A stretch of DNA of 36,362 bases. Source: Myxococcales bacterium. GTDB lineage: Bacteria; Myxococcota; Myxococcia; Myxococcales; Myxococcaceae. Position 1 is the first letter of the stretch. Each line of letters begins with the position of its first letter. Below the pieces are notes generated by a model. It did not search any database and was not told where the DNA came from. It worked only from the letters and a program-made list of their open reading frames with translations. This document shows positions 12,968 through 36,362 of this stretch, one piece after another. The stretch covers positions 102,984-139,345 of the forward strand of contig JAUXZV010000023.1 of NCBI GenBank assembly GCA_030693825.1, read 5' to 3'. Position numbers and translations under genes: made by a program.

Positions 12968-14137
12968 CTGGTCTGGTGCGCGTCCTCCTGTACGACGCCC
13001 TCACCGAAGCCCGACCCCTCCGACGCGCCGCTCCAGCGCCAGGCGCTCGAGACGTTCGACACGGCGCTGGCGCGGCCGGCGCTCGAGAAGACGGTGACGG
13101 ACTTCGCGGCGCTCCGTGAGGCGGTCGACGGCTGGGCTCGCGCAGCGCAAGGGCAAGACGCGCAGGCGCTCACCTCGGCGAAGGCGGCGTTCGAGACGGC
13201 GTTCCTCACCTGGCAGCGGGTCGAGTTGCTTCAGCTCGGGCCCCTCGGCGCGGCGACGCAGGTGACGGCCGGTGAAGGGCTGCGAGACGAGATCTACTCA
13301 TGGCCGACGACAAACCTCTGCCGCGTCGACTCGGCGCTGGTGGCGAACACGACGCCTGACGACGCCTACTTCGCGACGGCGCTCGTCACCTCGAAGGGCC
13401 TCGCGGTGCTCGAGGAGCTGCTCTTCAACCAGTCGACGGCGAATGCGTGCCTGCCGAACGCCACCATCAACACCAACGGCAGCTGGGCCATGCTCGCGGG
13501 CTCGCCTGCGCTCGAGGAGCGGCGCAAGGCCTGGGCGCTCGGCGTGGCGCGGCACCTCGAGGCGACCGCGCGGCGCGCACGTGATGGGTGGAGCGCCCCG
13601 GGTGGCTTCGGCGACAAGCTCACGCAGGCCGGGGCCATGGGCTCGGTCTGGCGCACGCCGAAGGATGGCCTCGACGACGTCTACGCGGGGCTCTTCTATG
13701 CGGACCGCTGGGTGAAGGACTTCAAGCTGGGCGCACCAGCCGGCATCACCCCCGCGTGCATGGCGCAGTCGTGTCCCGCGCTCGCCGAGTCGCCGCGCGC
13801 CGGGCTGTCGACCAGGGCCCTGGTCGAGAACCTCGTCATGACGCGCGCCATCTTCACCGGCTCGTTCGAGCAGACCTCGAGCGCGGTGGGCTTCGACGAC
13901 CTGCTCGTCGAGCGTGGGGCCGGCGCGCTGAAGGACGAGATGCTCCAGAAGCTCGACGCAGCAGTGGCCGCCGCGCGCGCGCTCCAGCGTCCGGTCTCGG
14001 TCGCCGCCACCGAGGACCTCGACGGACTCCAGGCGCTCCACGCCGACGTCAAGGCCTTCACCGACCTCTTCAAGTCGCAGTTCGTCACCACGCTGTCGCT
14101 CAAGGTCCCCAGGGAGGGGGCCGGCGACAACGACTGA
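12938..14137 (+). CDS. Imelysin-like (Peptidase_M75 / IrpA-like) periplasmic or lipoprotein
   Basis: Helical-bundle protein with GLAVLEELLF-type and GVARHLEA motifs recalled from imelysin-like/EfeO-C family proteins. N-terminal hydrophobic signal IVLNIVLVWCASSC. Start uncertain: GTG 12938 or TTG 12944. GGAG lies 13 nt upstream of 12938. Confidence 0.6.
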   Translation: MHLRIVLNIVLVWCASSCTTPSPKPDPSDAPLQRQALETFDTALARPALEKTVTDFAALREAVDGWARAAQGQDAQALTSAKAAFETAFLTWQRVELLQLGPLGAATQVTAGEGLRDEIYSWPTTNLCRVDSALVANTTPDDAYFATALVTSKGLAVLEELLFNQSTANACLPNATINTNGSWAMLAGSPALEERRKAWALGVARHLEATARRARDGWSAPGGFGDKLTQAGAMGSVWRTPKDGLDDVYAGLFYADRWVKDFKLGAPAGITPACMAQSCPALAESPRAGLSTRALVENLVMTRAIFTGSFEQTSSAVGFDDLLVERGAGALKDEMLQKLDAAVAAARALQRPVSVAATEDLDGLQALHADVKAFTDLFKSQFVTTLSLKVPREGAGDND

Positions 14138-14168
14138 GCGCAGTGCACCCTTGTCACACAGAGGCACC

Positions 14169-15299
14169 ATGCATCGAGTTCTTCTGAGCCTGATCGTTCT
14201 TCCCGTCGCGGCCTGTGGCCCGATGGACATGCGTCTCGATGGCGGTGGTGGCGCAGGCGGCGGTTCGACCGGCTGCACCGTGACCCTCACCGGCGCCTAC
14301 CCCGACGCGGGCTTCGCGACGAACGCGGCCGCCGAGATCAGCCTCCTCGGCAAGCTCAACGCGCTCAACGCGCCGATGCGGGCCGCCGAGCTCGACGCGG
14401 GCTTCACGGTGACGCGCATGCAGCTCGACGAGCTCTTCAGCGCCGGCACGCCGTCGCTCTCGAGCCTCACCGCGGCGGGCTTCCAGCCAGTGGTCCAGGA
14501 GACCTTCACCGCCTTCCTCGCCTCCCAGGGCCGCGTGTGGACGCCGATGGACCCTCCGATGAGCGGCGGCATCTACGGCTCGGGCACCAGCCAGTGGATC
14601 TACAGTGAGCGCGGCGTCGACCTGCGGCAGGTCATCGACAAGGGGCTCTACGGCGCGCTGTTCTACGGCGAGGCGGTCAAGCGCATGCCGACGGCGACGA
14701 CGCCGGAGTCCATCGACCAGCTGCTCGCGCTCTACGGTGCCACGCCGAACTTCCCGCAGAACGACACCACGGCGCCCGGGCGCGACGAGCTGATGGCGAA
14801 GTACGCCAAGCGCCGCACGCCGCAGGGCATGACGGGGCAGTACACGACGATGCGAGATGCGTTCGTTCGCGCGCGGCTCGCGGCCGGTTCGGCCAGCTGC
14901 ACCGCCGAGCGCACGGCGGCGCTCGAGACCATCAAGAGCGAGTGGGAGGAGATGCTCGCGGCGACCGTCGTCTTCTACGTGAACTCGGCGGCGACGAAGC
15001 TGCAGGACCCGATGGCCGACGTGGCGAAGAAGTCTTCGGCGATGCACGACCTCGGGGAGGGCGCCTCGTTCTTCCTCGGGCTCAAGGCCGTGCCGCAGGC
15101 GAACCGGCGCATCACCGACGCGCAGATCGACCAGGTGCTCACGGCGATGAAGATCCCCTCGCTCGCGGGCTCGACGGCGTTCCAGTTGCTGACGACGGTG
15201 CCGCCTGACATCGACGCGCTGCTCGCGGCGAACATGCAGCTGCAGACCGTCTACGGCTTCACCGCCGATGAGATGGTGCGCTTCCGGACCAACTTCTGA
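14169..15299 (+). CDS. Lipoprotein of unknown function. Its position in imelysin/HTTM/TonB clusters suggests it could be the DUF4856-like lipoprotein of such loci (tentative).
   Basis: MHRVLLSLIVLPVAACG lipobox. Weak AGAGG RBS. Its stop overlaps the next start (TGATG), indicating translational coupling. Family assignment is from gene context only. Confidence 0.55.
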   Translation: MHRVLLSLIVLPVAACGPMDMRLDGGGGAGGGSTGCTVTLTGAYPDAGFATNAAAEISLLGKLNALNAPMRAAELDAGFTVTRMQLDELFSAGTPSLSSLTAAGFQPVVQETFTAFLASQGRVWTPMDPPMSGGIYGSGTSQWIYSERGVDLRQVIDKGLYGALFYGEAVKRMPTATTPESIDQLLALYGATPNFPQNDTTAPGRDELMAKYAKRRTPQGMTGQYTTMRDAFVRARLAAGSASCTAERTAALETIKSEWEEMLAATVVFYVNSAATKLQDPMADVAKKSSAMHDLGEGASFFLGLKAVPQANRRITDAQIDQVLTAMKIPSLAGSTAFQLLTTVPPDIDALLAANMQLQTVYGFTADEMVRFRTNF

Positions 15300-16609
15300 T
15301 GCGCGCGCGGTGGGAGCAGCTCGCGGGCTGGGCCGGCGCCTCGGAAGACGGCGCGTCGGTGCGGGTGTACCGCGCCCTCATCGGGCTGCTCCTCGCCGGA
15401 GCCCTCGTTCGCCTCCACCTGACGGGGTGGACGGGGCCGCTGTTCCTCGAGCCGACGTTCCGGTTCGAGTACGAGGCGTTCGCCTTCGTTCCCGTCATCC
15501 CGAAGGCGCTGGTGCCGTGGGCGCTCGCGGTGGGCGCGGTCGGCGCCGTGGTGCTGGGCTTCGGGGCCGGCTTGGCGCGCCGGCTGGGCGGTGTCGTCTT
15601 CCTCGCCTGCTTCGGGTGGCTCAAGCTGTATGACGTCACCAACTACCTGAACCACGACTACCTCGCGTTCCTGCTTGGGGCGCTGCTGACGGTGCTCCCG
15701 CTCGACGGCCCCTCGCTGCCGCGCTGGGCGCTGTGGCTCCTTCGTTTTCAGGTGGGCGTCGTCTACGTGCACGCCGGCCTCGCCAAGGTGAACACCGACT
15801 GGCTGCTGCACGGCCAGCCGCTCGAGACGTGGTTCGCGGCGAACCGGGGCCTGCCCGTGCTGGGCCCGTTGCTCGCGCTGCCGTTCGCGCCGCTCCTGGG
15901 GAGCTGGGCCGCTTGTCTCTACGACCTGACGATTCCGTTCTGGTTGTCGGCGCGGCGAACCCGGCCTTTCGCGCTGGTGGCGGTGCTCGTGTTCCACGGC
16001 GCGACGCACGCGCTCTTCGACATCGGCATCTTTCCCTTCCTGATGACGCTGAACGCAACGCTGTTCCTCGACCCGTCGTGGCCGCGGCGGCTCGGGTGGC
16101 GCCCGGTGGCCGTGGCGCAGGGCGGTCGGCCGCTCGGTGCAGCCCTGGCAGTTGGGCTCGCGATGTACGTCGCCTTCCAGGCGCTCTTCCCGCTGCGCTC
16201 GCACCTGCTCGGCGACGACGTGCTGTGGGACGAACAGGGCATGCGCTGGTCGTGGAAGGTGATGCTGCGCGAGAAGAACGGCGCGGTGAGCTACCGGGTG
16301 CGCGCGAAGGGCGAGACGCGCGAGTGGCAGATTGACCCTCGCGACGTGCTGACGGCGCGGCAGGCGAACGAGATGAGCGGCCAGCCGGACCTCATCGTGC
16401 AGCTTGGGCGGCACCTCGGGCGAGACCTCGCGCAGAAGCTCGGCCGGCCCGTCGAGGTGTTCGTCGACGCGAGGGTCTCGTTGAATCGGCGCGCGCCGAG
16501 GCTGCTCTTCAAGCCTGAGGTCGACCTGTTGACGCTCGAGAACCTTCGGCAGGCGCTGAACGAGTCTCCACGGCGGGCGTCTTCGCCAGAATCGGTCGCG
16601 GTGAGGTGA
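15299..16609 (+). CDS. HTTM-domain integral membrane protein (vitamin K-dependent gamma-carboxylase-like)
   Basis: VYRALIGLLLAGALVRLHL...LFLEPTFRFEYEAF...YVHAGLAKVNTDWLLHGQPLETWF matches the HTTM signature. At least 8 TM helices. Start is coupled to the upstream stop. Confidence 0.75.
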   Translation: MRARWEQLAGWAGASEDGASVRVYRALIGLLLAGALVRLHLTGWTGPLFLEPTFRFEYEAFAFVPVIPKALVPWALAVGAVGAVVLGFGAGLARRLGGVVFLACFGWLKLYDVTNYLNHDYLAFLLGALLTVLPLDGPSLPRWALWLLRFQVGVVYVHAGLAKVNTDWLLHGQPLETWFAANRGLPVLGPLLALPFAPLLGSWAACLYDLTIPFWLSARRTRPFALVAVLVFHGATHALFDIGIFPFLMTLNATLFLDPSWPRRLGWRPVAVAQGGRPLGAALAVGLAMYVAFQALFPLRSHLLGDDVLWDEQGMRWSWKVMLREKNGAVSYRVRAKGETREWQIDPRDVLTARQANEMSGQPDLIVQLGRHLGRDLAQKLGRPVEVFVDARVSLNRRAPRLLFKPEVDLLTLENLRQALNESPRRASSPESVAVR

Positions 16610-16610
16610 C

Positions 16611-19076
16611 GTGATGTGGTGGCCGGTCGTCGTGTCGTTGTTCGTCGCCCAGACGCCGACCGGTTCGGCTGACGGAGGCTCGTTCGACGAACCTCGCGGC
16701 CACTGGGAGTCCCGCACGCGAGTGAGCGAGCTGCCGCCGCTCGCCGACGGTGGCAGCTTCGAAGCGGATGAAGCTGCGGCACCGCGTGGCGTGACGGCGG
16801 CTGATCCCGACGGTGGCGGCTTCGACGCGGGAGAGGAAGCGACCCCGCGTGGCACGACGGTGGCTGACCCCGACGGTGGCGGCTTCGACGCGGGAGAGCA
16901 AGCCCGTGCCGCCACGGTGGCTGGCCCCGATGGTGGCGTGTGGGACGCCGAGGACGAAGCGGCGCCGGCCTCCGACGCCGGAGTGGGCTTCACCACGAAG
17001 GTGGTTGGGCAGCGGGGACCTGACGTTCGTCGCATCACCGGCAGCGCGGTGACGCTCGGCGAGGAAGACCTCGAGCGCCGCGAGCTCAACGACATTCATC
17101 GGGTCCTGGGTGAGGTGCCCGGCGTGTACTTTCGTGAAGAAGATGGGCTGGGCCTGCGGCCGAACATCGGCCTGCGCGGCGCGAACCCCGATCGGAGCGC
17201 GAAGGTCACGCTGATGGAAGACGGGGTGCTGCTCACGCCGGCGCCGTACTCCGCTCCCGCCGCGTACTACTTTCCGCTCGTCACCCGAATGGTGGGGCTC
17301 GAGGTCTACAAAGGGCCAGCGGCGATTCGGTTCGGCCCCCAGACGATTGGCGGCGCCATCAACCTGCGCACGCGCGAGGTGCCGAAGGAGCACCTCTTCA
17401 AGCTCGACGTCGCTGGAGGCAGCCGCTTTCAGGCGCGGGTGCACGGCGTCGCCGCGGTGGGCACGGAGCGCTGGGGCCTGCTCGCCGAGGGCGTGTTCCT
17501 GCGCGACGAGGGGTTCAAGGTGCTCGACCGCGGCGGCAACACCGGCTTCGAGCGCGGCGAGGTGATGCTGAAGGGGCGCGTGAGCCCCAACGACGCATGG
17601 CAACAGCAGCTCGAGGTGAAGGCGACGCTCTCGCTCGAGGACAGCCGGGAGACGTACCTGGGCGTGTCGACCGAGGACTTCGAGGCGACGCCGAACCGCC
17701 GGTACGCGACGACGGCGCTCGACCGGATGGAGTGGAACCGGCTCTCGGTGACGGCCCGCTGGAGCGCCCAACCGGCGTCGTGGTTGTCGTTGTCTGCGGC
17801 GGCGTACCGGCACTCGATGTTCCGCGCGTGGAATCGGCTCGATCGCTTCCGGCGGGGCCCGGGCCTGTACGAGCTGTTGGTGCAGCCGGTGCGCGGAGGA
17901 CTCGACGGTCAGTACCTCGGCGTGCTGCGCGGGGCGGTCGATTCGAGCAGCCTCGACGAGTCGCTCATCGTGCTGAACAACGCGCGCACCCTGGTGAGCC
18001 AGGGGGTGCAGGCCGAGGCGGTGGCGAAGCTGACGACGGGGCCAGTGCAGCACGAGCTCGAAGCGGGCCTGCGGTTCCACCACGACGAGGTTCGGCGCAA
18101 CCACACCGCCACCGGCTACGCAGTCGTCGGCGGCGCGCTCGAGCCTGACGCCTTGCCGGTGGCGCAGGACGCGCTCAACCGGGGGCTCTCGCGGGCCGGG
18201 GCGCTGCACCTGCATGACACCATGACGTGGGGGCGCCTGCTGGTGTCGCCGGGCATGCGCGTCGAGCTCATCGACACGGTGTTCAAGGACGACCTCTCGG
18301 GAAAGACGTCGCGGTCGCTCCAGGCGGTGCCGCTCTTCGGCGCGGGCGCGGTGGTGGCGTTGCCGCTGGGCCTCAACGTCTTTGGAGGTGTGCACCAGGG
18401 CTTCAGCCCCGTGACGCCCGGCCAGTCGGCGGACGTGCGGCCCGAGCGGGCGCTGCATGGCGAGCTCGGCGTTCGGTCGCCGTCGCGGCGTCGTCGGCTC
18501 GAGCTGGTGGGGTTCTGGAGCGAGTACTCGAACATCACCGGCGAGTGCACCGGCAGCACGGGCTGCGTCGACGACGCGCTCAACCGGCAGTTCAACGGGG
18601 GCGCGGCGCGCATCGTCGGGCTCGAGGCCCTGGCGTCGGTCGTGATTCCGCTCCCGGCCGACATCGAGCTGGTGCCTCAGGTGACGTACACCCTGACGAG
18701 CGCGCGGTTCTTGTCCGACTTCACCTCGTCGAACCCCATCTGGGGCGTGGTGCGGGCGGGCGACCTCATTCCGTACGTGCCGACGCACCAGGGCTCGGCG
18801 CGGCTCATCTTCAACCGCGACGCGCTGTCGCTGTCGGTGGGCGCGGAGTTCTCTGGTGGCGTCGTCGAGGAGGCGGGCGACGGCCTCTCGCAGCCGACGG
18901 TGCCGGGGCGGGTGTTGCTCGACGCGACGGCGAGCTACCGGGTGGGGCTGTTTCAGTTCTACGCGCAGGGCATGAACCTGACGAACCAGCAGGTGGTGGT
19001 GGCGCGGCGCCCATTCGGTGCGAGGCCGCTGGCTCCGCTCGCGGTGCAAGCCGGCGTGCGGGTGCAGTGGCCGTAG
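16611..19076 (+). CDS. TonB-dependent outer-membrane receptor with an N-terminal acidic repeat extension
   Basis: Plug domain (DIHRVLGEVPGVYF...NIGLRGANPDRSAKVTLMEDGVLL...YKGPAAIRFGPQTIGGAINLRTRE) followed by a long barrel ending ...RVQWP. The GTG at 16611 or ATG at 16614 follows GAGG. It starts 1 nt after the HTTM stop. Confidence 0.8.
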   Translation: MMWWPVVVSLFVAQTPTGSADGGSFDEPRGHWESRTRVSELPPLADGGSFEADEAAAPRGVTAADPDGGGFDAGEEATPRGTTVADPDGGGFDAGEQARAATVAGPDGGVWDAEDEAAPASDAGVGFTTKVVGQRGPDVRRITGSAVTLGEEDLERRELNDIHRVLGEVPGVYFREEDGLGLRPNIGLRGANPDRSAKVTLMEDGVLLTPAPYSAPAAYYFPLVTRMVGLEVYKGPAAIRFGPQTIGGAINLRTREVPKEHLFKLDVAGGSRFQARVHGVAAVGTERWGLLAEGVFLRDEGFKVLDRGGNTGFERGEVMLKGRVSPNDAWQQQLEVKATLSLEDSRETYLGVSTEDFEATPNRRYATTALDRMEWNRLSVTARWSAQPASWLSLSAAAYRHSMFRAWNRLDRFRRGPGLYELLVQPVRGGLDGQYLGVLRGAVDSSSLDESLIVLNNARTLVSQGVQAEAVAKLTTGPVQHELEAGLRFHHDEVRRNHTATGYAVVGGALEPDALPVAQDALNRGLSRAGALHLHDTMTWGRLLVSPGMRVELIDTVFKDDLSGKTSRSLQAVPLFGAGAVVALPLGLNVFGGVHQGFSPVTPGQSADVRPERALHGELGVRSPSRRRRLELVGFWSEYSNITGECTGSTGCVDDALNRQFNGGAARIVGLEALASVVIPLPADIELVPQVTYTLTSARFLSDFTSSNPIWGVVRAGDLIPYVPTHQGSARLIFNRDALSLSVGAEFSGGVVEEAGDGLSQPTVPGRVLLDATASYRVGLFQFYAQGMNLTNQQVVVARRPFGARPLAPLAVQAGVRVQWP
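16746..16980 (+). repeat. In-frame tandem repeat (~60-63 bp period, ~4 copies) encoding DGGGFDAGEE-A-PRGTTVADP units in the TonB receptor N-terminus
   Basis: Successive units beginning gacggtggc(a/g)gcttcga... are directly visible. Copies 2 and 3 are nearly identical over their first 30 nt. Confidence 0.6.
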
Positions 19077-26593: not shown

Positions 26594-27373
26594 ATGACGA
26601 CGGCGGCGGTGGAAGCGAAGGGGCTCACCAAGCGGTTCGGCGACTTCACGGCCGTCAACGCGCTCGACATGACGATTCCCCGCGGCAGCTTCTACGCGTT
26701 CCTCGGGCCCAACGGCGCCGGCAAGTCGACGACCATCTCGCTGCTGACGGGCATCTATGCGCCCGATGGCGGCTCGTTGTCGTTGCTGGGCATCGACGCG
26801 GTGAAGGACCCGCTCGCGGTGAAGTCGCGCGTCGGCGTGGTGCCCGAGGAGCTCTCGTTGTTCGAGCGCCTCACCGGCCGGCAGTACCTGACGTTCTGCG
26901 GCCGCATGCACGGCCTTCTGGGTGACGAGTCCGAGCGGCGCGCGGACGAACTGCTGACGCTCACCGAGCTCTCGTACAAGGGTGGCGCGCTGGTGGCGGA
27001 GTACTCCAAGGGCATGCGCCGCCGGCTCGCCATCGCCGCTGCGCTCGTGCACGCGCCCGACCTGGTCTTCCTCGACGAGCCGTTCGAGGGCATCGACGTC
27101 ATCGCCGCTGGTGTCATTCGCGAGCTGTTGTCGGAGCTGTCGCGCCGCGGCGTCACCCTGCTGCTCACGACGCACGTGCTCGAGATCGCCGATCGCCTCG
27201 CCACCCACGCCGGCATCATTCGCGCTGGAAAGCTGGTGGACGAAGGGCCGGTGGCCGAGCTCGTCGCCCGGCACGAGGTGAAGTCGCTCGAGCAGGTGTT
27301 CGAGAAGCTCATCGGGGTGCCGGTGGCGCGAGACGCGAAGCTGTCGTTCTACGGAGCGGCGCGTGCAGGCTGA
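26594..27373 (+). CDS. ABC transporter ATP-binding protein (ABC-2 type)
   Basis: Walker A GPNGAGKSTT, signature YSKGMRRRL, Walker B LVFLDEPFEGID. Confidence 0.85.
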   Translation: MTTAAVEAKGLTKRFGDFTAVNALDMTIPRGSFYAFLGPNGAGKSTTISLLTGIYAPDGGSLSLLGIDAVKDPLAVKSRVGVVPEELSLFERLTGRQYLTFCGRMHGLLGDESERRADELLTLTELSYKGGALVAEYSKGMRRRLAIAAALVHAPDLVFLDEPFEGIDVIAAGVIRELLSELSRRGVTLLLTTHVLEIADRLATHAGIIRAGKLVDEGPVAELVARHEVKSLEQVFEKLIGVPVARDAKLSFYGAARAG

Positions 27374-29042
27374 GCGGGCCGTACAGCCTTCAAGGCCCGG
27401 ACCTCCGTCGTTCTTCCAGCACCTCGTCCTCCTCTGGCAGCTGCGCCTCACCATCGGCTTCAACCGCAGCGATGGCAGACACCGCTGGTTCTCGGTCGTC
27501 GCGTTCGTGTTCTCGGCCTCGCCGTCGGTCGTGCTCGCGCTGATGTTCTACCGCTTCATGCAGCACCCGGTAGTGGCGGGCTCCGACGCGTGGGGCGACT
27601 TCCTGGTTCGCCTCTTGTTGTTCGTCACGAGCGCGACGTGGGTGACGTGGCCGGTGTTGTCGGCTGGCGTCGACGACCACTCGGAGCTGTCGCGCTACTC
27701 GGCGTTCCCCATCTCGAGCTTCCGCCTCATGTTGGCGTCGACGCTGGCGAGCCTGTTCGAGCCACGCACCTTCGTCTTCTACGGCCCGCTCGTCGGCGCG
27801 ACGGTGGGGTACCTGAAGAACCGGCCGCCCGAGTCGTGGGCGCTGGTGGTGGTCGGCTTCGCCTCGTACGTGCTGCTGAACGCGGCGCTCTCACGCGTCG
27901 GCCTGCACGTGATGTTGAACCTGCTGCGGCAGGCGCGCTCGGCCGAGCTGATTGGCGGTGGCTTCGTGGTGAGCCTCGTGGTGGCGGCGTTCATTCCCGC
28001 CGTCGACACCGAGTGGCTGCTCCACCTCAACGAGGTCGGCGCCGCAGCGGTGCCCGACACCATCATCGAGAACGCGGCGCTGGCGCTGGGGCGGTTTCCC
28101 ACCGGGTGGTTCGGCCATCTGTTGCGCGCGAACTGGGCGGGGCGGCTCGAGCTCGCGGCGGCCGACGCGCTCGCCACGCTGGAGCTCAGCCTCGTCGCGC
28201 TCGTGGTGGCGTGGGGGCTCTTGCTGCAGTTCCACCGCTTCTCGGGGCGCGCGGGCTCCATCTCGAACCAGGCGCGGGCGTCGAACCCGTTCGCGCACAC
28301 GAAGAGCACGTTCTCGACGTTGGTCGTGCGTGAGGCCATCGACCTCTGGAACAACCCGCGCGCGCGGCTGCTGGCCTCGGTGCCGTTCGTGCTCGCGATT
28401 CTGCTCAAGCTGCTGTCTGGCCGCGCGCTGTTCGTCTTCCTTCTCGGGGCCTCAGCCGACGCCTGGGTGATGGGCGGCCTCACGGTGTACGGGGCCATCG
28501 TCTTGTCCTCGACGTTCTCGCAGAACGCGTTCGCCTACGACGGCCACGGCTTCACGGTGTTCCTCTCCTCGCCGGTGCCGGTGGGAGAGGTGCTGCGCGC
28601 GAAGAACGTGGTGCACGGCGCGGTCGGCGGCGTGATGGGCGTGCTCGTCGTCGTCTTCTACTTGGCGTACTTCCGGGCCGGGAGCGCGCTCGACGTTACG
28701 TGCGCGCTGCTCTCGGTCATCGCGCTGGTGCCGGTCTTGCTCACCGCGGGCAACTTCCTGTCGCTGTATTTCCCCGTGAAGTTCCACGCCAACCTGAAGC
28801 GTCGCGACACGCTGCCGTTCGCGGCGTCGATGCTGGGGCTCGCGGCGGCGTCGATTGGCACCGCGCCGTTCGCGACCGCGATGAAGCTCGTCGGGAAGCA
28901 GGGGCCGAACGTGATGACGGCGTTGCTCATCGTCTTCTCGGCCGTGCTCGCCTGGGCCGTGTACCGGCTCACGTTGCCCGTGGTGCTGAGGCTGCTCGAT
29001 CAGCGGCGGGAGCGCATTCTTCGCGCCGTCACCCGGGAGTAG
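27363..29042 (+). CDS. Putative ABC-2-type transporter permease (polytopic membrane protein, 559 aa)
   Basis: GTG start overlapping the ATPase stop by 11 nt. About 10-12 hydrophobic helices. No specific family recognised. Confidence 0.6.
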   Translation: MQAERAVQPSRPGPPSFFQHLVLLWQLRLTIGFNRSDGRHRWFSVVAFVFSASPSVVLALMFYRFMQHPVVAGSDAWGDFLVRLLLFVTSATWVTWPVLSAGVDDHSELSRYSAFPISSFRLMLASTLASLFEPRTFVFYGPLVGATVGYLKNRPPESWALVVVGFASYVLLNAALSRVGLHVMLNLLRQARSAELIGGGFVVSLVVAAFIPAVDTEWLLHLNEVGAAAVPDTIIENAALALGRFPTGWFGHLLRANWAGRLELAAADALATLELSLVALVVAWGLLLQFHRFSGRAGSISNQARASNPFAHTKSTFSTLVVREAIDLWNNPRARLLASVPFVLAILLKLLSGRALFVFLLGASADAWVMGGLTVYGAIVLSSTFSQNAFAYDGHGFTVFLSSPVPVGEVLRAKNVVHGAVGGVMGVLVVVFYLAYFRAGSALDVTCALLSVIALVPVLLTAGNFLSLYFPVKFHANLKRRDTLPFAASMLGLAAASIGTAPFATAMKLVGKQGPNVMTALLIVFSAVLAWAVYRLTLPVVLRLLDQRRERILRAVTRE

Positions 29043-29203
29043 CGCCGAACGGTGGGGCGGCTCCGCCCTGACGGATGAATGAGGATCAGGTGACGCCCTT
29101 TCGGGGGGGCCCTCGCCTTTTCGTCTGTCGCCGTGTGTCACACTCCAGCCCACCACTCGTTCCGCTCCCTGGGCAGTGAACAACGCAGTCGTGTGAGGCA
29201 TCG

Positions 29204-29770
29204 ATGGAGCCCATGGTCGACGAAGAGTTGGTCTGTCTCAGGGAGCGGCGGCTGGTGAAGGTCAGCCCCGACGGAGAACGTTCCATCAGCTGCACGGAGC
29301 GCTGCCCGCTCGAGGCATGTGCCCATGGTGTGGCCGCCGGGCGCTGTGGGCTTCGCTTGTGCGGTGAGCTGGTCAGCCCGCTGGTGACCGTGCTGGATGC
29401 AGAGCTCTCGGTCGCCGAGGCGCTCTCCGTGCTCGACGCCGCCCACCTCTCGTCTGCTCCCGTCGTCGACGACAACCTGGTGCTCGTGGGTCTGGTCTCG
29501 ACCTCCGAGCTCCACGCCGCTGAAGCCGGACTCGACGTGGAGGTCGAGGACGCGATGACGACGTCGGTGGTGGCCGTGTCGGACCGCGCCACCGTCGCAG
29601 AGATTGCCCAGGTGATGGACGAGCACGACCTCGACCGCGTCCCCGTCGTCACCAGCGAAGGTCAGCTGCGCGGCATGGTGACGGCCATGGACCTGGTGCG
29701 GTGGTTCCGGCGGCACGCGCTCCCCGTCGAGGTCGACGCGCCGGAGCAGGCCGTGGGCGCGCATCGCTGA
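29204..29770 (+). CDS. CBS-pair domain protein with an N-terminal Cys-rich (possible zinc-ribbon) segment
   Basis: Two CBS-like segments (LVTVLDAELSVAEALSVLD...APVVDDNLVLVGLVSTSEL and MTTSVVAVSDRATVAEIAQVMDEHDLDRVPVVTSEGQLRGMVTAMDL) are preceded by 6 Cys within 45 aa. GAGG RBS. Confidence 0.7.
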   Translation: MEPMVDEELVCLRERRLVKVSPDGERSISCTERCPLEACAHGVAAGRCGLRLCGELVSPLVTVLDAELSVAEALSVLDAAHLSSAPVVDDNLVLVGLVSTSELHAAEAGLDVEVEDAMTTSVVAVSDRATVAEIAQVMDEHDLDRVPVVTSEGQLRGMVTAMDLVRWFRRHALPVEVDAPEQAVGAHR

Positions 29771-29778: not shown

Positions 29779-30243
29779 TCAGTCGCAGGTGACAACGGTG
29801 CACGCGCCCCACAAGCCAATGCGGCTCGTCTTCGCCTGCGACTCGTACGTCTCGAACTCGTCGCGCCGCGCGCCGCCCGATGGAGACACGTACAGCGTGC
29901 ACGCGTAGCCCTGCTCGACGAGCGTGCGGTTCAGGTCGACGCCGTTGACCTTCACGTAGGCCAACGTTCGCCCGAACCGGTCGGTGCAGCCGGCCTCGTC
30001 GTAGCTGAGCTCCACCGTCTTGCCCGTCACGGTGTCCGAGGTGAACTGCGCGGCTTGCTGGCCGAAGCAGTCGGTCTTGCCGTTGGTCGACTCGGGCGTG
30101 TCGACGAGGAGCAGGCGCACCCGCTTGCCGTCAGACAGCTCGAGCGTATCGCCATCGATGGCGCGGCTGACGACGGCGGTCGAGGGCCCGCAGAGGCTGG
30201 GTGGCGTGGGCATTCCACAGGCCGCCACCATGGGCATCATCAC
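29779..30243 (-). CDS. Thermonuclease (staphylococcal nuclease / SNase fold), probably secreted or lipoprotein
   Basis: IDGDTLEL (Ca ligand Asp), RVRLLLVDTPES (Arg35, Asp40, Thr41, Glu43 equivalents), DRFGRTLAYV (Arg87 equivalent) and IGLWG align with SNase catalytic residues. The start is unclear: GTG 30243 gives a short MMMPMVAAC lipobox, and there is no canonical start upstream in frame. Confidence 0.8.
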   Translation of the reverse strand: MMMPMVAACGMPTPPSLCGPSTAVVSRAIDGDTLELSDGKRVRLLLVDTPESTNGKTDCFGQQAAQFTSDTVTGKTVELSYDEAGCTDRFGRTLAYVKVNGVDLNRTLVEQGYACTLYVSPSGGARRDEFETYESQAKTSRIGLWGACTVVTCD

Positions 30244-30272
30244 CAGCGCTGCGCTCCAGGGCTTCGAGCGCG

Positions 30273-32588
30273 TCAGGGCGCGCCGCCGTCACAGAGGGGG
30301 TTCAGCTCGGTCGGGCTGCCGTAGTCGCCGGGCCCGGCGTCGGTGGCGAAACGGTTCGGCGCGATGCACAGGTTCGCCGGCACGTCGTTGATGGCGGGCG
30401 TGATGAGCATCGGGTCGATCAGCAGCTCACCGGGCACCTGCCATGACTTGCCGCTCGTCGACCGGAAGAAGGCGATCTCGTCGATGCCGGCGTCACCGCG
30501 GAAGAGCCGCAGCAGCTCGTTGCCCGAGCTGCTGATGCCGATGGTGAAGGTGGCGATGGGGGGCGGTAGCCCGCCGTTGAGGAACGCGTTCGCGCTGCGC
30601 GCGAGAATCGCGTACGTCGTCGCCGGCACGCGCAGGCAGTTCGACGAGGCGATGGTGTTGCGCGTGCCTGCACCGTTGGCGACCGAGAGGCCATTCAGGT
30701 CGACGTCGGTCGTGGCGTACACCTCGAACCAGGTTCCGACCGTGGTGCTGACCGACGGGCTTGGCATCACCTCGGTGATGACGAGGTCGCCCGGCTCTGC
30801 GGCGACGATGGGCCGCGGGGTGCCGTTGTCGAGGCAGGTGCCCGTCATGGCTTCCGGAGCGCAGACCGGGTTCGCCGCGCCAGGGGTGCCAGAGCTGCCA
30901 GGCGTGTACTCGCTGCTGGTCGGCGTGTCGCACCAGTTGGCCTCGACCGCAGCGAGCGCAGTCGTGGGCGTCGCAGGCCCACCGAGCATGCGGCTTCGCC
31001 CGGAGCGCGCCGTGCGCACCCACGTGTATTCACCGACGACCTTCGTGTCGCAGCGAACGCCCACGGTGCCCGACGAGTTGTTCAACGCGCCCAGGTCTGC
31101 GCCGTAGGCGTAGCTGATCCACGCGGGGTTCGGCCCGGTGCGCACGTCGCCGACCGCGACCGCCTGGCCCGGCGGCACGATGACGGAGCTGCGCACGACG
31201 TGGGACCTGGGGGTCGTCGCGCCCTGGCGGTAGGTGAGCGTGAGGCCCGCGAGGTCGATGGGCGCGGCCGTCGTGTTGAAGAGCTCGAACCACTCGAGGC
31301 CGGTGTCGGTGCTGGGCGGGTCGACCATCACCTCGGTGACGACGAGGTCGCCCCCGTCGATGGCGTTGCAGTCGAAGGTCGGCAGGCCGCCGTCGGGCAC
31401 CACCACGACGCCAGAGTCCGCCGCGCAGGCTCCGTTGGCCGCGGCGGGCGTTCCGAAGTCGCCCGCGCTCCCCATCCACGCTGAGCTGGCTTTGCAGAAC
31501 GAGTCAGGGGTGTCGTTGAGGCTGGGCAGAATCTCGTCGGGGTTGGCGAGCAGCTCGGGTCGCACCTGCCATGAGACGCCGGTCTGCGAGGCGAAGAAGG
31601 TGGCGTCGTCGATGCCGGCATCACCACGCACCAGCCGCAGCCGCTCATTGGCCGACGAGAGGCTGACCGAGAACGTCGCCACGGCCTTCGGCAGGCCGCC
31701 GTTGACGAAGGCGTCGTTCGAGCGCGCGATGATGTTGTACGACTGCGCCGCCACCGTGAGGCACTCAGGCGAGGTGAGCGTGGCGCGGCTGGTGCTCGTC
31801 GCGATGGCGAGGCCGTTGAGGTCGACGTCGGTGGTGGCGTAGAGCTCGATCCACTCGCCGAGGGTGTCGGTGACGGCCCTCGGGCTCGCCATGACCTCGG
31901 TGATGAGCAGGTCTCCGGCCTCGGCCGCGACGATGGGGCGGGGCATGCCGTTCTGCAGGCAGGTGCCGACCATCGCCTCGGGAGCGCACTGCGGGTTGGG
32001 GCCGCCGGGCGTGCCGTAGCCGCGCGGCGTGTACTCGGTCGAGGTGGGCGTGTCGCACCAGTTGGCCTCGTTCGAGACGCGCGAGGCATCGGGGTCGACG
32101 CCACCGCCGAGCATGCGGGAGCGGCCCGAGCGCGCGGCGCGCGAGTAGCTGTACTCGTTGATGGCCGTCATGCCGCAGCGAATGGCGACGGTGCCTGAGG
32201 TCTGGCTGAGCGCGCCGAGATCGTCTCCGTAGCTGTAGCCAATCCACGAGGGGTTGGGGCCCGAGCGCACGTCACCGAGCGCGAGGTAGCCGCGGGCCGG
32301 CACCTGCACCGAGGCACGAACGGTGTGCGACTTCGCCGTCGAGGTGCCTTGCCGGTAGGTGATGGTGTAGCCGCGCAGGTCGATCGGCGTGCCGAGGGTG
32401 TTGAAGATCTCGATCCACTCGGCGCCGGTGTCGGTGCCCTCGGGGTCGAGCATCAGCTCGGTGATGACGAGGTCTCCAGCCACGCGGCCTTTGCAGGCGT
32501 CGGTGGGCATCTCGACGGGCGGGGTACACGACACGGCCGCGACGGCCGCCACCAGGAACATCACTCGAATTGAAGGCACGTTAGTCAT
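30273..32588 (-). CDS. Lipoprotein composed of four lamin-tail domains (LTD) arranged as a tandem A-B-A-B duplication
   Basis: Four LTD signatures (GDLVITELMLDPEGTDTGAEWIEIFN...IDLRGY; GDLLITEVMASP...GEWIELYATTDVDLNGL; GDLVVTEVMVDPPSTDTGLEWFELFN...IDLAGL; GDLVITEVMPSP...GTWFEVYATTDVDLNGL). Start ATG 32588 (MTNVPSIRVMFLVAAVAAVSC) overlaps the upstream stop within ATGACTAA. Confidence 0.75.
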   Translation of the reverse strand: MTNVPSIRVMFLVAAVAAVSCTPPVEMPTDACKGRVAGDLVITELMLDPEGTDTGAEWIEIFNTLGTPIDLRGYTITYRQGTSTAKSHTVRASVQVPARGYLALGDVRSGPNPSWIGYSYGDDLGALSQTSGTVAIRCGMTAINEYSYSRAARSGRSRMLGGGVDPDASRVSNEANWCDTPTSTEYTPRGYGTPGGPNPQCAPEAMVGTCLQNGMPRPIVAAEAGDLLITEVMASPRAVTDTLGEWIELYATTDVDLNGLAIATSTSRATLTSPECLTVAAQSYNIIARSNDAFVNGGLPKAVATFSVSLSSANERLRLVRGDAGIDDATFFASQTGVSWQVRPELLANPDEILPSLNDTPDSFCKASSAWMGSAGDFGTPAAANGACAADSGVVVVPDGGLPTFDCNAIDGGDLVVTEVMVDPPSTDTGLEWFELFNTTAAPIDLAGLTLTYRQGATTPRSHVVRSSVIVPPGQAVAVGDVRTGPNPAWISYAYGADLGALNNSSGTVGVRCDTKVVGEYTWVRTARSGRSRMLGGPATPTTALAAVEANWCDTPTSSEYTPGSSGTPGAANPVCAPEAMTGTCLDNGTPRPIVAAEPGDLVITEVMPSPSVSTTVGTWFEVYATTDVDLNGLSVANGAGTRNTIASSNCLRVPATTYAILARSANAFLNGGLPPPIATFTIGISSSGNELLRLFRGDAGIDEIAFFRSTSGKSWQVPGELLIDPMLITPAINDVPANLCIAPNRFATDAGPGDYGSPTELNPLCDGGAP
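30300..32480 (-). repeat. Internal ~1.08-kb tandem duplication (two LTD-pair modules) within the LTD lipoprotein gene
   Basis: Protein halves (residues ~50-385 and ~415-770) are collinear and highly similar, including the RSGRSRMLGG and NWCDTPTS(T/S)EYTP segments. Nucleotide identity not computed. Confidence 0.6.
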
Positions 32589-33711
32589 CCTCTTCACTGC
32601 GGTCGGCCCGTTTCTGATCATCAGTCAGCAGCTTCTCGAGCGAGGTCGACGGCGCGAGCACCTGCCCGGGGAGTGAGACGACCACCTGCAGCCGCTCCCA
32701 GCCCTTCTCGTTCTTGTACTTCTGCACGGTGCCGCGCACCTGCACGTATTCACTCTTCTTGAACTGCACGCCGGTGGACAACAAGACGTCGCGGTCGAAG
32801 AAGACGACGTCGAAGTCGTTGGTGCGGGTGCGGGCGAGCTTCACCACCGAGGGCCCGGTGCCTTCGCTGTATTTCAGGTCGCTGACCGAGCCGAGAATCG
32901 TCACCTCCTGGCCGACCTTGCTCTCGAGCTTCAGCATCGCGTCCCAGCGGGTGAGCGCGATGTAGTGCTCCGGGTCTTCGACGGCGGCCTTCTCGAAGCG
33001 GGTGATGACGGCCGCGCGCTCGGCCCACCACTTCAGGCGCTCCTCGTAGTCGGGGTAGGCCATGGCGCCCTGCTTCCAGATGCCGCGCTGGCCTTCACGC
33101 GCCTCGCGCTCGGCGTCGACGAACTCTTTGTGGAAGCGGCGGCTGCGGCCGTACTTCACGAAGTAGGGCGAGAAGCCGGCCCGCACACACTCGACGTTGT
33201 AGTTCACCCACTGGCCGTTCTTCTTCGCGAACACGTAGGCGAGGTAGCGGTTGTAGAAGTCGCGGATCTCGCCGGGGTGGTCGCGCTCCATGCGCACCTC
33301 GCGAACGTCTTCGAAGAAGGCCTGCGCGTAGTGCTTGGCGTCTTCGCCCAGTGGCGTGGCGTACTTCGCCGGCCGCGACGACGTTCCCTGCATCTGCTTC
33401 TTGTATTGCTCCCAGCCCGCCGCGAACGCCGCGCGCTCGGAGTCCTTCTTGAACGTCTCTTCGGTGTCGAGGCCCAGCAGACGCAGCGACGCTGGCAGGC
33501 CCTTGACCTTGATGGTGTCGCCGTCGAGCACCGACGAGGCGCCCTCGATGGGGAACTCGCCGAGCTCGAGGCTGACGGTCTCGAGGCGCTTGAGCAGCGA
33601 GCGGGTCTCGTCCTTCGTGAAGCGCTTGGACTGCTCCGTGGTGACGCCAGCGCACGAGAGCGCCAGGAGGAGCGCGGTGACGGCGAGAAGGCGAAGGGGG
33701 AGCGAGATCAT
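32581..33711 (-). CDS. SNase-fold nuclease lipoprotein with a C-terminal ~200-aa extension (possible OB-fold / nucleic-acid binding)
   Basis: Lipobox LLLALSC. VLDGDTIKVKG, LRLLGLDTEE, FYNRYLAYVF and GIW conserve the SNase catalytic and Ca-binding positions. It starts 6 nt after the upstream OMP stop. Confidence 0.75.
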   Translation of the reverse strand: MISLPLRLLAVTALLLALSCAGVTTEQSKRFTKDETRSLLKRLETVSLELGEFPIEGASSVLDGDTIKVKGLPASLRLLGLDTEETFKKDSERAAFAAGWEQYKKQMQGTSSRPAKYATPLGEDAKHYAQAFFEDVREVRMERDHPGEIRDFYNRYLAYVFAKKNGQWVNYNVECVRAGFSPYFVKYGRSRRFHKEFVDAEREAREGQRGIWKQGAMAYPDYEERLKWWAERAAVITRFEKAAVEDPEHYIALTRWDAMLKLESKVGQEVTILGSVSDLKYSEGTGPSVVKLARTRTNDFDVVFFDRDVLLSTGVQFKKSEYVQVRGTVQKYKNEKGWERLQVVVSLPGQVLAPSTSLEKLLTDDQKRADRSEEDD

Positions 33712-33717
33712 GGTGGG

Positions 33718-35925
33718 TCAGAAGCTGGTGCGGAGGTCGAGGAGGAAACGATGCTCTGGAGAGGGCTGCCGGCGCAAGGTCGAGGCCCGTTGGTCGAGCC
33801 ACACGAACAGGTCGTAGCGCGCCGCGACGCGCGTGCCCTTGAACGGAATCCACGCGGCCTCGAAGAACGTCCACAGCGAGTCTTCGTAGGTGGTGGGGCT
33901 GTCGATGCCCTCGGCGCGCAGGCGTGAGCGCAGCCGCAGCGAGAGCCAGTCGACCGGCTGACTCATCGCCTCGACCCAGACCTGCAGGTCGTTGCGAAAG
34001 TTCTCGCGGTACGCGCTCGAGAGGTCGTCGCGCCACGAGAACGAGGCCTGCTCGGTGAAGCCCAGGCGCTTGCCGAAGGGGCGCACGTCGATGCGCTGCA
34101 CGACGCGGTACGAGTCGCAGGTGAAGAAGGTGACCTCGCCGTCGAAGTCGTCCGGGGTGTTGAAGAACTCGGGCATGCCCGAGACCACCTGGGTCTGGCT
34201 GCAGACCCCGCGTTGGCTGACGGCGAGGTTTCTGTCGCTCAGGCGGAACCAGATGCTGGGCTTCAAGCCCCTGAAGCCCGTGAAGTCGACGCGCGTGAGG
34301 AGGATGAGGTTGGTGGTGCCTGCGCGGCCTCCCCGGCCGGCGAAGGGCAGCGTCCAGAAGTCGGCGGTGGCGCGAAACTGCCAGTCGCGACTGAACTTGC
34401 CGAAGTAGCGCACCCGCGCGCCGAGCTCGTTGCGCGCCCGCTGGCCGGCGTCTTCGTCGGGCCCTGAGAACGGCCGTGCGTAGGGGTTGAGGAACCGGTT
34501 GTCGTAATAGCGGAAGACGACCTCGAGCTCGTGGCCCTTGGGCGCCCAGGTGGTGCGCTGCACGGCGCCGAAGCCGCCGCCCTGGTTGTTGATGGCCTTG
34601 TCGAAGCTGCGCGTCACCTCGAGGTGCAGGTTGACGGGGCCGAGCACGGCCTGCGCGTCGACGCCGATGGCTCCGTAGGCGCCCCCGTTGGGGTAGCGCG
34701 AGGTGTCCTGGAAGTCGGGCTGCACCGCGCTGCCTGGAGGCACGGTGTTGAAGAAGGGCACCGCGCCGTACCCCGTGATGCCGAAGCGAAGGGCGTAGTT
34801 GGGCTTGAAGTCGACGTGGCCGCCGGCCGAGAGCTCGTCGAAGAAGCCAGGCAGGGTGGCGTAGCGAAGCCGCCATGGGGTGCTCGGGTCCTGCGGGTTC
34901 AGGATGGAGATGCGCGGCGAGCTGCAGTCCGAGTCGGTCGACGAAGGGTCGAGGCAGGTGGCGCGATCGTACAGATCGTACTGGTACACGCCGCGCGACT
35001 GGTACGAGAGGAAACCGTAGAGCGAGAGCGAGCGCTGGTCGCCGAGGTCGAGGTTCTCGATGCTGCCGGCGACGCCGCGGAAGGCGTCGCGCGTCGCGTA
35101 GTCGGCGGTGACGTAGCGGCTGCCGTCCTGGCACTCGGGTGGCGGGGTCGCGCCGGTGTCGACGCTGGTGCGGCAGAGGGTCGAGAGGTCCTGGTTTCGC
35201 CTGAAGTCGTCGGTGAGGTAGAGGCCACGCGGGGTCACCCGGCGCGTGTTGTCGAGGGTGAGGCGCTCGCCGAAGCCGATGGTGAAGGTGCCGACGATGA
35301 CGCGGCGGTTGCCGTTGAGCCACTGCAGGAACAGGCGCGGCGCGTCGAGGCGGTACCTGTAGCCTTCGGTCGCGAGGCCCTGGAGCGTCTGGTCGAAGCG
35401 GGGCTGCACCGGGTCGAGCCGGCTGGTGACGAGCATGGCGCCGGCGGTCAGGTCGAGCGGGCCCCTGAGCCGGGCCGCGAAGAGCGCCGGCGGCGCGAGC
35501 GAATCGGTCAGCGTGTATTGGGTGAGCAGGCGAAGCTTGCCGCCGATCGGCAGCTTCTCTTTCACCGGCTCGAGCGAGATGTAGACGGCGATGCCGATGA
35601 GCTGCTCGGCGGTCATCACCCCGGCGCCGACGAGCTCGGCCGGGTCTTCGATGCGGCCCTTCTGCGTGCGGTAGAGGATGAGCTTGTCGACGTCGTCGTA
35701 GGTGAGGCCGGGCAAGTCATAGAGCCTCTCGCGCGGCGCCGAGTTCAGGTCGACGCCTTCACGAAGCAGCTCGAGCAGGGTGTCGCCGGTGTCCTGCGAG
35801 ATGTCGCCTCGCTGCACCATCGCGAAGATGTCTTCTTCGTCGTCGGCGTCGACGACGGCCTCGTAGATGGCCCCGAACGCGGAGGCCGACCACAGGCAGG
35901 CTGCAAAGGCGATGACCGGGCGCAT
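33718..35925 (-). CDS. Predicted outer-membrane beta-barrel protein with an N-terminal ComEA-like helix-hairpin-helix DNA-binding domain
   Basis: Signal peptide MRPVIAFAACLWSASAFGA. The HhH segment DLNSAPRERLYDLPGLTYDDVDKLILYRTQKGRIEDPAELVGAGVMTAEQL matches the ComEA-type pattern (DLNTA...LPGIG...I..YR...G.F...EDL..V.GIG). The remaining ~600 aa are rich in alternating aromatic/Gly beta-strand patterns and end in a terminal Phe (...LDLRTSF). ATG at 35925 with a GGGTGG SD-like sequence upstream. Confidence 0.65.
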   Translation of the reverse strand: MRPVIAFAACLWSASAFGAIYEAVVDADDEEDIFAMVQRGDISQDTGDTLLELLREGVDLNSAPRERLYDLPGLTYDDVDKLILYRTQKGRIEDPAELVGAGVMTAEQLIGIAVYISLEPVKEKLPIGGKLRLLTQYTLTDSLAPPALFAARLRGPLDLTAGAMLVTSRLDPVQPRFDQTLQGLATEGYRYRLDAPRLFLQWLNGNRRVIVGTFTIGFGERLTLDNTRRVTPRGLYLTDDFRRNQDLSTLCRTSVDTGATPPPECQDGSRYVTADYATRDAFRGVAGSIENLDLGDQRSLSLYGFLSYQSRGVYQYDLYDRATCLDPSSTDSDCSSPRISILNPQDPSTPWRLRYATLPGFFDELSAGGHVDFKPNYALRFGITGYGAVPFFNTVPPGSAVQPDFQDTSRYPNGGAYGAIGVDAQAVLGPVNLHLEVTRSFDKAINNQGGGFGAVQRTTWAPKGHELEVVFRYYDNRFLNPYARPFSGPDEDAGQRARNELGARVRYFGKFSRDWQFRATADFWTLPFAGRGGRAGTTNLILLTRVDFTGFRGLKPSIWFRLSDRNLAVSQRGVCSQTQVVSGMPEFFNTPDDFDGEVTFFTCDSYRVVQRIDVRPFGKRLGFTEQASFSWRDDLSSAYRENFRNDLQVWVEAMSQPVDWLSLRLRSRLRAEGIDSPTTYEDSLWTFFEAAWIPFKGTRVAARYDLFVWLDQRASTLRRQPSPEHRFLLDLRTSF

Positions 35926-36011
35926 CGAGCGGCGCCACCCTACCCGCAAACAGCAGGCAGGATCGTGACCCTTTCACTCGTCAGGAAACGGCAAGGTGAC
36001 GCCACTGAAAC

Positions 36012-36362
36012 CTAGTTGTTGGGCGCGCCGGCGTTGATCCAGTCGCGAATGAGGTCGATCTGCACTTGAGGCAGACAGGAATTGCCCGAGCAGCCTCGGG
36101 GCATACGTCCGCCACACGTCTGCGTCCCTGCGACTTTCTGGAAGAGCAAGCTCGCCGTGGCGTCGCTCGCGACGAGGCGCGGGCCACCGCATGAGCTCGT
36201 GCCGCGCACGTAGGTGTTGGCCGCGGCGACGGTGTCGGTCGAATGGCAGGTGCTACATCGTGCCGCGAGAATCGGTGCGACCTGCGACATGAAGCTGACT
36301 TGTGCGGTTCCCCCTCCGGCAGCGCCACCTGCCGCCGAGCCACCTGCTGCCGAGCCACCTGC
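36012..36362 (-). CDS. Partial CDS, 5' end outside the window: protein with a Gly/Ala/Ser-rich linker and a C-terminal PSCyt1-like (planctomycete cytochrome c-type) domain
   Basis: VAPILAARCSTCHS...LIRDWINAGA matches the PSCyt1 domain pattern, including CxxCH. The frame stays open upstream to the window end through AGGSAAGGSAAGG (15-nt direct DNA repeats at 36320-36362). Confidence 0.5.
   Translation of the reverse strand, partial: AGGSAAGGSAAGGAAGGGTAQVSFMSQVAPILAARCSTCHSTDTVAAANTYVRGTSSCGGPRLVASDATASLLFQKVAGTQTCGGRMPRGCSGNSCLPQVQIDLIRDWINAGAPNN

Follow-up and report, generated by a model that had tools for sequence, protein, structure and literature searches.

Four co-inherited genes of Myxococcota for two nuclease lipoproteins, a lamin-tail lipoprotein and an outer-membrane barrel probably form one envelope unit acting on nucleic acid

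What would a myxobacterium do with two nuclease lipoproteins, a lipoprotein made of lamin-tail domains (LTDs) and a large outer-membrane barrel, all encoded side by side? This question is raised by a gene cluster at 29779-36362, minus strand, in a stretch of 36,362 nucleotides from a Myxococcales bacterium of the Myxococcaceae (GenBank assembly GCA_030693825.1, contig JAUXZV010000023.1, positions 102,984 to 139,345 of the forward strand), which is called the window throughout. An earlier note, made from the letters of this DNA without database searches, had described five co-directional, tightly packed genes there and had suggested a surface machine that tethers extracellular DNA (eDNA), cleaves it and passes the products through the barrel. 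Five consecutive co-directional open reading frames (ORFs) were indeed found where the note had placed them, and their close or overlapping junctions were confirmed. The analysis reported here indicates that four of the genes, encoding the barrel, the LTD protein and the two nucleases, very probably specify one functional envelope unit that acts on nucleic acid. A narrower proposition, that this outer-membrane unit degrades extracellular DNA or RNA and moves the fragments via the barrel to the periplasm for nutrition, we regard as evenly poised. The members of the cluster and their parts are as follows.

33718-35949, minus strand: outer-membrane barrel protein, 743 aa
35872-35949, minus strand: signal peptide of the barrel protein
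35761-35871, minus strand: mature N-terminus of the barrel protein (residues 27-63), the motif AIYE and then acidic helices
35575-35760, minus strand: helix-hairpin-helix (HhH) domain of the barrel protein, with the ComEA fold
33721-35544, minus strand: beta part of the barrel protein, about 24 strands, ending in a C-terminal Phe
32581-33711, minus strand: long nuclease lipoprotein (long SNase), 376 aa, lipobox LALSC (Cys20)
33067-33576, minus strand: SNase domain of the long nuclease, with an insertion of about 25 residues and a helical linker after it
32674-32964, minus strand: C-terminal nucleic-acid-type OB fold of the long nuclease
30273-32621, minus strand: four-LTD lipoprotein, 782 aa, lipobox AAVSC, 17 Cys in the mature protein, isoelectric point (pI) 4.4
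About 31986-32495, 31422-31940, 30861-31370 and 30291-30815, minus strand: the LTD units
29779-30276, minus strand: short SNase lipoprotein; from the GTG start at 30243 it has 154 aa (29779-30243)
29806-30177, minus strand: SNase domain of the short nuclease
36012-36362, minus strand: 3' part of a gene for a small CxxCH lipoprotein, which leaves the window; an accessory neighbour

The first line of evidence is the conservation of the cluster. A scan of one genome per species returned 112 loci, of which the best 80 were kept and compared with the window proteins by tblastn. In these 80 loci every module match lies on the strand of the barrel gene, and the median span of the unit is 6.1 kb. Among the loci with enough flanking sequence, the LTD gene adjoins the barrel gene in every case, and at least one SNase gene is present in all except one (L036). 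Gene order is permuted between lineages and membership is kept: the order barrel, long SNase, LTD, short SNase was found in 29 loci of the Myxococcaceae/Archangiaceae type (nine of them with the CxxCH gene upstream), the order long SNase, LTD, short SNase, barrel, in some cases led by a single-LTD gene, in 23 loci of Nannocystaceae, Polyangia and Haliangiales, and a third order, SNase, barrel, LTD, in the distant locus L081, where the LTD gene is apparently frameshifted. Long SNase, LTD, barrel was the order in seven loci, and barrel, LTD, short SNase in three, including Cystobacter fuscus Cbf 10 and Corallococcus carmarthensis. This clustering is far beyond chance. Moreover, the sequence identities of the partners co-vary with that of the barrel across loci (r 0.92-0.96), as is expected under vertical co-inheritance. 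Conservation is highest in the long SNase, and when all neighbouring ORFs were clustered, none besides these four accompanied the unit from lineage to lineage. The synteny of the 80 loci thus bears out the view of the earlier note that these genes form one unit for four of them; it speaks against it for the fifth, the CxxCH gene, which occurs in 9 of the 80 loci, in close relatives only, and is an accessory neighbour outside the conserved unit.

Module loci came from Myxococcaceae, Archangiaceae, Nannocystaceae, Polyangia, Haliangiales and Anaeromyxobacter-labelled genomes. The barrel protein has about 130 relatives in a protein set clustered at 90%, all of them from Myxococcota where named, and a profile search of a set of 5.8 billion proteins with the A2 alignment brought up no protein beyond the 130 that the single sequence had already found. 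A profile search of 1.84 billion representatives gave 341 barrel representatives at E<=1e-30. The module appears to be characteristic of Myxococcota. Depending on the locus, LTD proteins have lengths between about 330 and 1360 aa, and the main LTD protein has about two to seven domains. An extra small gene with single-LTD similarity (tblastn, about 104-212 aa matched) lies directly upstream of the long SNase gene in loci of the Nannocystaceae/Polyangia type (L044, L047, L050, L052, L058, L062, L063, L066, L070 and L072, at about 4400-6800 in each). Two contigs of the metagenome-assembled genome CALNBU01 (uncultured Archangium sp.; L019 and L069) encode barrels that share 50% and 37% identity with the window protein; since this genome carries two paralogous copies, the module seems to have been duplicated in some lineages.

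The second line of evidence concerns the enzymes. The short SNase matches PF00565 with 81.8 bits (E 5.9e-23) and aligns with Staphylococcus aureus nuclease over residues 23-146; a phmmer comparison with 1snq_A and others gave E 4e-20, with AIDGDT, VRLLLVDTPE and FGRTLAY aligned. The long SNase has the SNase fold and its catalytic residues, with a PF00565 match at E 3.9e-11 and a weak OB match in Pfam. The earlier note had held the catalytic residues of the short SNase to be intact; alignment to nuclease A agrees with this and extends it to the long SNase, the equivalents of D21, R35, D40, E43 and R87 being kept in both proteins. Both enzymes therefore look catalytically competent. The C-terminal extension that the note had seen on the long SNase proved to be a nucleic-acid-type OB fold, like those of MCM, RPA and AsnRS, with a five-strand barrel and a helix between strands 3 and 4. 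The SNase domain (pI 8.6) and the OB fold (pI 9.3) of this protein are both basic. The LTD protein, for its part, matches PF00932 over four stretches (139.7 bits against a cut-off of 34.3, E 6e-41), in line with the four lamin-tail domains originally counted, and the repeat-start motif GDL[LV][IV]TE[LV]M recurs at aa 49, 236, 424 and 611.

All three of these proteins have a lipobox (AAVSC in the LTD protein, LALSC in the long SNase and VAAC in the short SNase). In Myxococcus xanthus, Lys at position +2 is an inner-membrane retention signal and Ala at position +7 is a matrix signal (PMC3222651). Neither Lys +2 nor Ala +7 is present in any of the three module lipoproteins, so an outer-membrane location is the default expectation for them.

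For the barrel protein of 743 aa, AlphaFold2 gave a confident model (pLDDT 86.6, pTM 0.84) from an alignment of 91 barrel relatives, which also underlies the HhH charge counts given below. The model has helices at residues 38-123 and then about 24 long beta strands ending at the C-terminal Phe, with short turns (2-6 residues) alternating with long loops (up to 64 residues). The protein carries a signal peptide in addition to the C-terminal Phe, and its beta part is basic (pI 8.8). Highly conserved long loops contain GFGERLTLDNTRR, YQYxLYDRxxCxDP, DFQExSRYPxGG and NPYARPxSxPDExxGQRARNE, and the strongest conserved motifs sit in predicted extracellular loops. In class, the barrel is closest to FimD/PapC, MtrB and TonB-dependent transporters. 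Its top Foldseek matches are the ushers FimD/PapC, yet with TM scores of 0.33-0.38 and 6-10% identity; a chaperone-usher identity was rejected on these low values, together with the lack of an usher Pfam match for the barrel and of chaperone or pilin genes in the neighbourhoods. A TonB-dependent transporter was also rejected, as the combination of the plug PF07715, a 22-strand TonB_dep_Rec barrel and a TonB box was not found in the protein.

The N-terminal domain of the barrel protein is an (HhH)2 domain of the HHH_3 type with the ComEA fold. HHH_3 matches residues 64-114 with 24.4 bits, slightly under the Pfam cut-off of 27, and an N-terminal HHH_3 match of up to 56 bits was present in each of ten representatives taken from the lowest-scoring ones listed. 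The SNase, LTD, HhH and barrel folds named in the earlier note were thus all recovered, by Pfam matches, by the AlphaFold2 model and by the likeness to the ComEA fold. The place of the HhH domain, in contrast, differs from what that note had imagined. Outer-membrane barrels with an even number of strands have both their N- and C-termini in the periplasm. From the count of about 24 strands and the sidedness of short turns and long loops, we infer that the HhH domain lies on the periplasmic side, and hence that it would not be the surface DNA tether that had been suggested. Between the signal peptide and this domain, the mature N-terminus carries a nearly invariant motif, AIYE (xYxVPIxV in distant members), which is disordered in the model; a helical segment of strongly acidic character (pI about 4.05) comes after it. 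The AIYE segment seems to resemble a beta-augmentation or TonB-box-like handle.

The strongest argument that the substrate is a nucleic acid comes from a distant relative. In locus L082 (7481-12417; Myxococcales bacterium AMXMBFR64), the place of the SNase is taken by a PLDc_2 lipoprotein, a Nuc-type nuclease (172 aa, E 3e-28), which is followed by the barrel and by a 745-aa LTD-like repeat protein. Because a nuclease of another family replaces the SNase beside the pair of barrel and LTD-like protein, this non-orthologous replacement points to nucleic acid as the substrate. Two more distant barrel contexts (L083 and L084) have neighbours that could not be annotated. The nucleic-acid theme therefore draws on several independent parts, namely the intact SNases, the OB fold, the retained ComEA-fold domain and the PLDc_2 replacement, and the link to nucleic acid drawn at the outset is strengthened by the OB fold and by the locus of AMXMBFR64.

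Taken together, these features suggest how the unit might work. Two Ca2+-type SNase lipoproteins, anchored in the outer membrane and presumably oriented outwards, would cut DNA or RNA from prey, lysed kin or matrix, one of them bringing its own OB-fold substrate-binding domain. The multi-LTD lipoprotein, as the obligate partner of the barrel, may be an extended scaffold or spacer that keeps substrate or enzymes at the barrel. The barrel of about 24 strands, with a lumen that would be in the class of pilus-usher size, would carry the fragments across the outer membrane, and its periplasmic ComEA-fold domain would receive the incoming nucleic acid or gate the channel. The likely benefit would be a supply of phosphorus, nitrogen or nucleotides for organisms whose way of life is to lyse other cells. 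A further-reaching form of this idea holds that the HhH-barrel is a monomeric outer-membrane nucleic-acid translocon of about 24 strands, importing DNA or oligonucleotides without a type IV pilus or secretin, fed by the lipoproteins, provided with a ComEA-derived periplasmic receiver, ratchet or DNA-mimicking gate, and possibly coupled in a TonB-like manner in some lineages; we put this forward as tentative and rather doubtful.

Several observations weigh against nutritional import through the barrel. SNases yield mono- and dinucleotides as end products, which would not need a 24-strand channel, and clustering of the gene neighbourhoods linked no inner-membrane transporter, phosphatase or ComEC gene to the unit. 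In all 91 relatives of the alignment the HhH domain is acidic, with a median pI of 4.27 and a net charge of about -6; none of them has a pI above 7, and the domain in the window has a net charge of -5. Its hairpins read PG(L/I)T and AG(V/A)(L/M)T (PGLT and AGVMT in the window) where ComEA has GIG, and Asp or Glu is found at post-hairpin positions that are Lys in ComEA. Because the domain is acidic and its hairpins are degenerate, DNA binding appears doubtful in the subfamily of the window protein. The ComEA-like, DNA-binding module of the earlier note therefore holds as a fold and is weakened as a DNA binder; the photosystem protein PsbU has the same fold without DNA binding. Some distant HhH domains look canonical, for example that of P0371 with LPGLS...VPGVGP, and ComEA domains in the PDB themselves have net charges of only about -2 to +1. 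Since the ComEA domain of Geobacillus is also slightly acidic, the argument from charge is softened, and the acidity of the module domain would be a shift away from ComEA, not a disqualification.

The remaining points of this kind concern the LTDs and the acidity of two of the lipoproteins (pI 4.4 for the LTD protein and 4.7 for the short SNase). The cell-associated extracellular nucleases ExeM of Shewanella oneidensis and Xds of Vibrio cholerae serve to degrade eDNA, to remodel biofilms and to supply phosphate (PMC6085458, PMC6746945, PMC4714964, PMC3212620); where eDNA is used as a source of phosphate, Dns/Xds act first and periplasmic phosphatases follow. The LTD of ExeM adds modestly to activity, with an unknown role (PMC6085458), and Xds needs its LTD neither for activity nor for association with the membrane, the role again being given as unknown (PMC6746945). 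With these precedents and an acidic LTD protein, the original suggestion that the LTDs tether eDNA is conjecture. Like the module, ExeM and Xds bring together an LTD, an OB fold and a nuclease at the cell envelope. However, each is one polypeptide with an EEP catalytic domain and neither a dedicated barrel nor an HhH domain, whereas the module relies on SNase catalysis, spreads its domains over three lipoproteins and is genetically fixed to a barrel. An ExeM/Xds-type nuclease was accordingly rejected for the module: the NCBIfam model exonuc_ExeM-GG, which has a cut-off of 1300 bits, matched nothing but the LTD and scored 20, and no EEP domain is present. The outer-membrane-vesicle nuclease MXAN_0366 of M. 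xanthus was likewise rejected as an orthologue, since it is an EEP-family protein and hence unrelated.

Other known systems resemble the module in part. FimD/PapC (24 strands), MtrB, TonB-dependent transporters and SusC share the size class and strand number of the barrel, and the utilisation logic of SusCD-type systems is similar as well, a barrel being paired with lipoproteins at the surface for the binding or cleavage of a polymer. YhcR of Bacillus subtilis is a wall-anchored, sugar-non-specific nuclease that combines OB, SNase and nucleotidase domains. This protein, which is mentioned in PMC6085458, is like the module in combining OB folds with an SNase domain at the surface; it is unlike it in that all its domains belong to one protein, a sortase substrate of a Gram-positive species, with no LTD partner and no barrel.

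Among the alternatives to import, the one that survives best is that the barrel exports, assembles or docks the LTD lipoprotein and the nucleases at the surface (compare LptDE and MtrAB) and imports nothing. The nucleases would then act purely outside the cell, in predation, in the remodelling of matrix eDNA or in the escape from DNA traps. The pairing of barrel and LTD protein is the tightest and most universal in the unit, with the type and number of nucleases varying around it, which speaks for such a role. It also agrees with the size class of the barrel, since ushers and MtrB are barrels through which proteins pass or in which they are enclosed, with the placing of the top conserved motifs in extracellular loops, as for a docking surface, and with an acidic HhH domain that is more like a protein-binding than a DNA-binding module. 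However, an export function leaves the invariant ComEA-fold domain on the barrel unaccounted for, and apart from generic barrel features the protein resembles neither known lipoprotein exporters nor BamA/TamA-type proteins. We consider this explanation unlikely.

A pilus-independent route of transformation, in which long DNA would pass through the barrel and be held by the periplasmic ComEA-like domain while the nucleases make ends or trim, has a precedent in logic. Transformation of Riemerella anatipestifer involves the barrel RA0C_RS04915, the surface protein RA0C_RS04920 and the periplasmic HhH protein RA0C_RS02645 (PMC8459023). In the model proposed there, which is speculative, DNA goes from a surface binder to an outer-membrane barrel and on to a periplasmic HhH protein without a secretin (PMC8459023), much as it would in the module. 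The Riemerella components, however, are encoded by separate genes, with a carboxypeptidase-regulatory-like barrel and DUF5689/DUF5017 proteins and no nucleases, and the comparison with the module is one of logic. Two non-specific endo- and exonucleases within the unit would destroy transforming DNA, and the HhH hairpins are degenerate and the domain acidic. A ComEA-type context was rejected too: ComEA is soluble or inner-membrane-anchored, whereas the module HhH domain forms the N-terminal part of an outer-membrane barrel protein of 743 aa and is more acidic than ComEA and without its GIG hairpins and post-hairpin Lys, and in the 80 neighbourhoods no pilus, secretin or comEC genes were found and no comF or dprA was linked to the unit. 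A transformation route is, on these grounds, quite improbable.

The weakest alternative, a periplasmic or envelope barrier in which the lipoproteins face the periplasm and destroy leaked or injected nucleic acid and the barrel is an unrelated porin, could appeal to the fact that Lol-sorted lipoproteins are periplasmic by default and to the candidate single-protein PADLOC model 'SNc+LTD', which matches both SNases, but it is very improbable indeed, as PADLOC has no model that fits the barrel or the LTD protein, the vertical, phylum-wide inheritance (r 0.92-0.96) is unlike that of mobile defence islands, and the strict linkage to the barrel would go unexplained. A known anti-phage defence system was rejected for the same reason that only this candidate model was matched, and by the SNases alone. 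Degradation of extracellular nucleic acid followed by uptake through the barrel is accordingly the reading that we retain.

We also examined the junctions of the cluster. The CxxCH gene is separated from the barrel gene by 62 nt, and the barrel gene from the long SNase gene by 6 nt. The LTD gene probably starts at ATG 32588, which gives a protein of 771 aa and an overlap of 8 nt with the long SNase gene (41 nt with the 782-aa start). Between the LTD gene and the GTG start of the short SNase lie 29 nt. From this GTG, at 30243, there would be eight residues only ahead of the lipobox Cys (VAAC); an in-frame CTG at 30276, which overlaps the stop codon of the LTD gene (CTGA), would add LTRSKPWSAAL and give a complete lipoprotein signal (LTRSKPWSAALVMMPMVAAC). 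L003 has kept this CTG-initiated upstream stretch, which suggests that translation of the short SNase begins at a non-canonical, translationally coupled start. Scans for terminators and promoters, which are weak evidence, found no minus-strand terminator-like site inside the cluster and no promoter-like site. No Rfam families or tRNAs were found in the window, the GC content of which is high (about 0.64-0.72).

Upstream of the barrel gene, the partial ORF specifies the C-terminal end of a small lipoprotein that has a Gly/Ser/Ala-rich linker and a single CxxCH motif; its full-length relative in L003 has 162 aa and the lipobox LAIAAC. For sequence past the window end, the close relatives L001 and L003 were used, an exact look-up of the long SNase (P0121) having given no record. 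The CxxCH gene had been described as encoding a PSCyt1-domain protein, a label that finds no support, since neither the fragment nor the 162-aa relative has a Pfam PSCyt1 match and only marginal matches to PccH, Haem_bd and Cytochrome_CBB3 (E about 0.03-0.06) were obtained. The GGSAA-type low-complexity linker (36291-36362, minus strand) is encoded by a short tandem DNA repeat, and a run of N stands at this repeat in L001 (9330-9430); because of this run, the repeat is likely to be hard to assemble and may be variable in length.

Outside the unit, a gene for a TonB_2-domain membrane protein lies co-directionally upstream in 23 loci of the Myxococcaceae/Archangiaceae type (7564-9158 in L001, and 22 others), and a small methyltransferase-like gene lies upstream in 17 loci of this type; neither was found in any locus of the Nannocystaceae type. 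A convergent ExbB-ExbD-TonB triplet is located immediately downstream of the L082 unit. These TonB-type neighbours may reflect lineage synteny or hint at energised transport. In the window, genes for an ABC ATPase, an overlapping 559-aa multi-pass membrane protein without Pfam match and a CBS-pair protein (26594-29770, plus strand) lie convergent to the short SNase gene, on the side of its 3' end, and their linkage to the unit is seen in close relatives only. A further cluster at 12806-19076 (plus strand), with genes for imelysin (Peptidase_M75), a DUF4856 protein, an HTTM/vitamin-K-carboxylase-like membrane protein and a TonB-dependent receptor, looks like one of the metal-uptake type and seems to be unrelated to the nuclease-barrel module.

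Degradation and acquisition of nucleic acid at the envelope is a known kind of system, the central component of which, in the present case the barrel, is undescribed. The earlier note knew of no described system of this composition; our literature search found none either, with no description of the nuclease-barrel module or of the barrel family. To our knowledge, passage of nucleic acid or of its larger fragments through the Gram-negative outer membrane is known only for competence systems with a secretin and pilus and for the small nucleoside channel Tsx. If it is true that the barrel conducts nucleic acid, the module would be categorically new, and the barrel would be of interest as a nanopore scaffold. 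The module is also a natural system for learning what bacterial lamin-tail domains do. Myxobacteria are major predators in soil and sediment and release much prey DNA. We know of no description of how they recover the phosphorus and nitrogen of this DNA, and the genetically fixed, phylum-wide unit with its uncharacterised barrel is a concrete, deletable candidate for that step.

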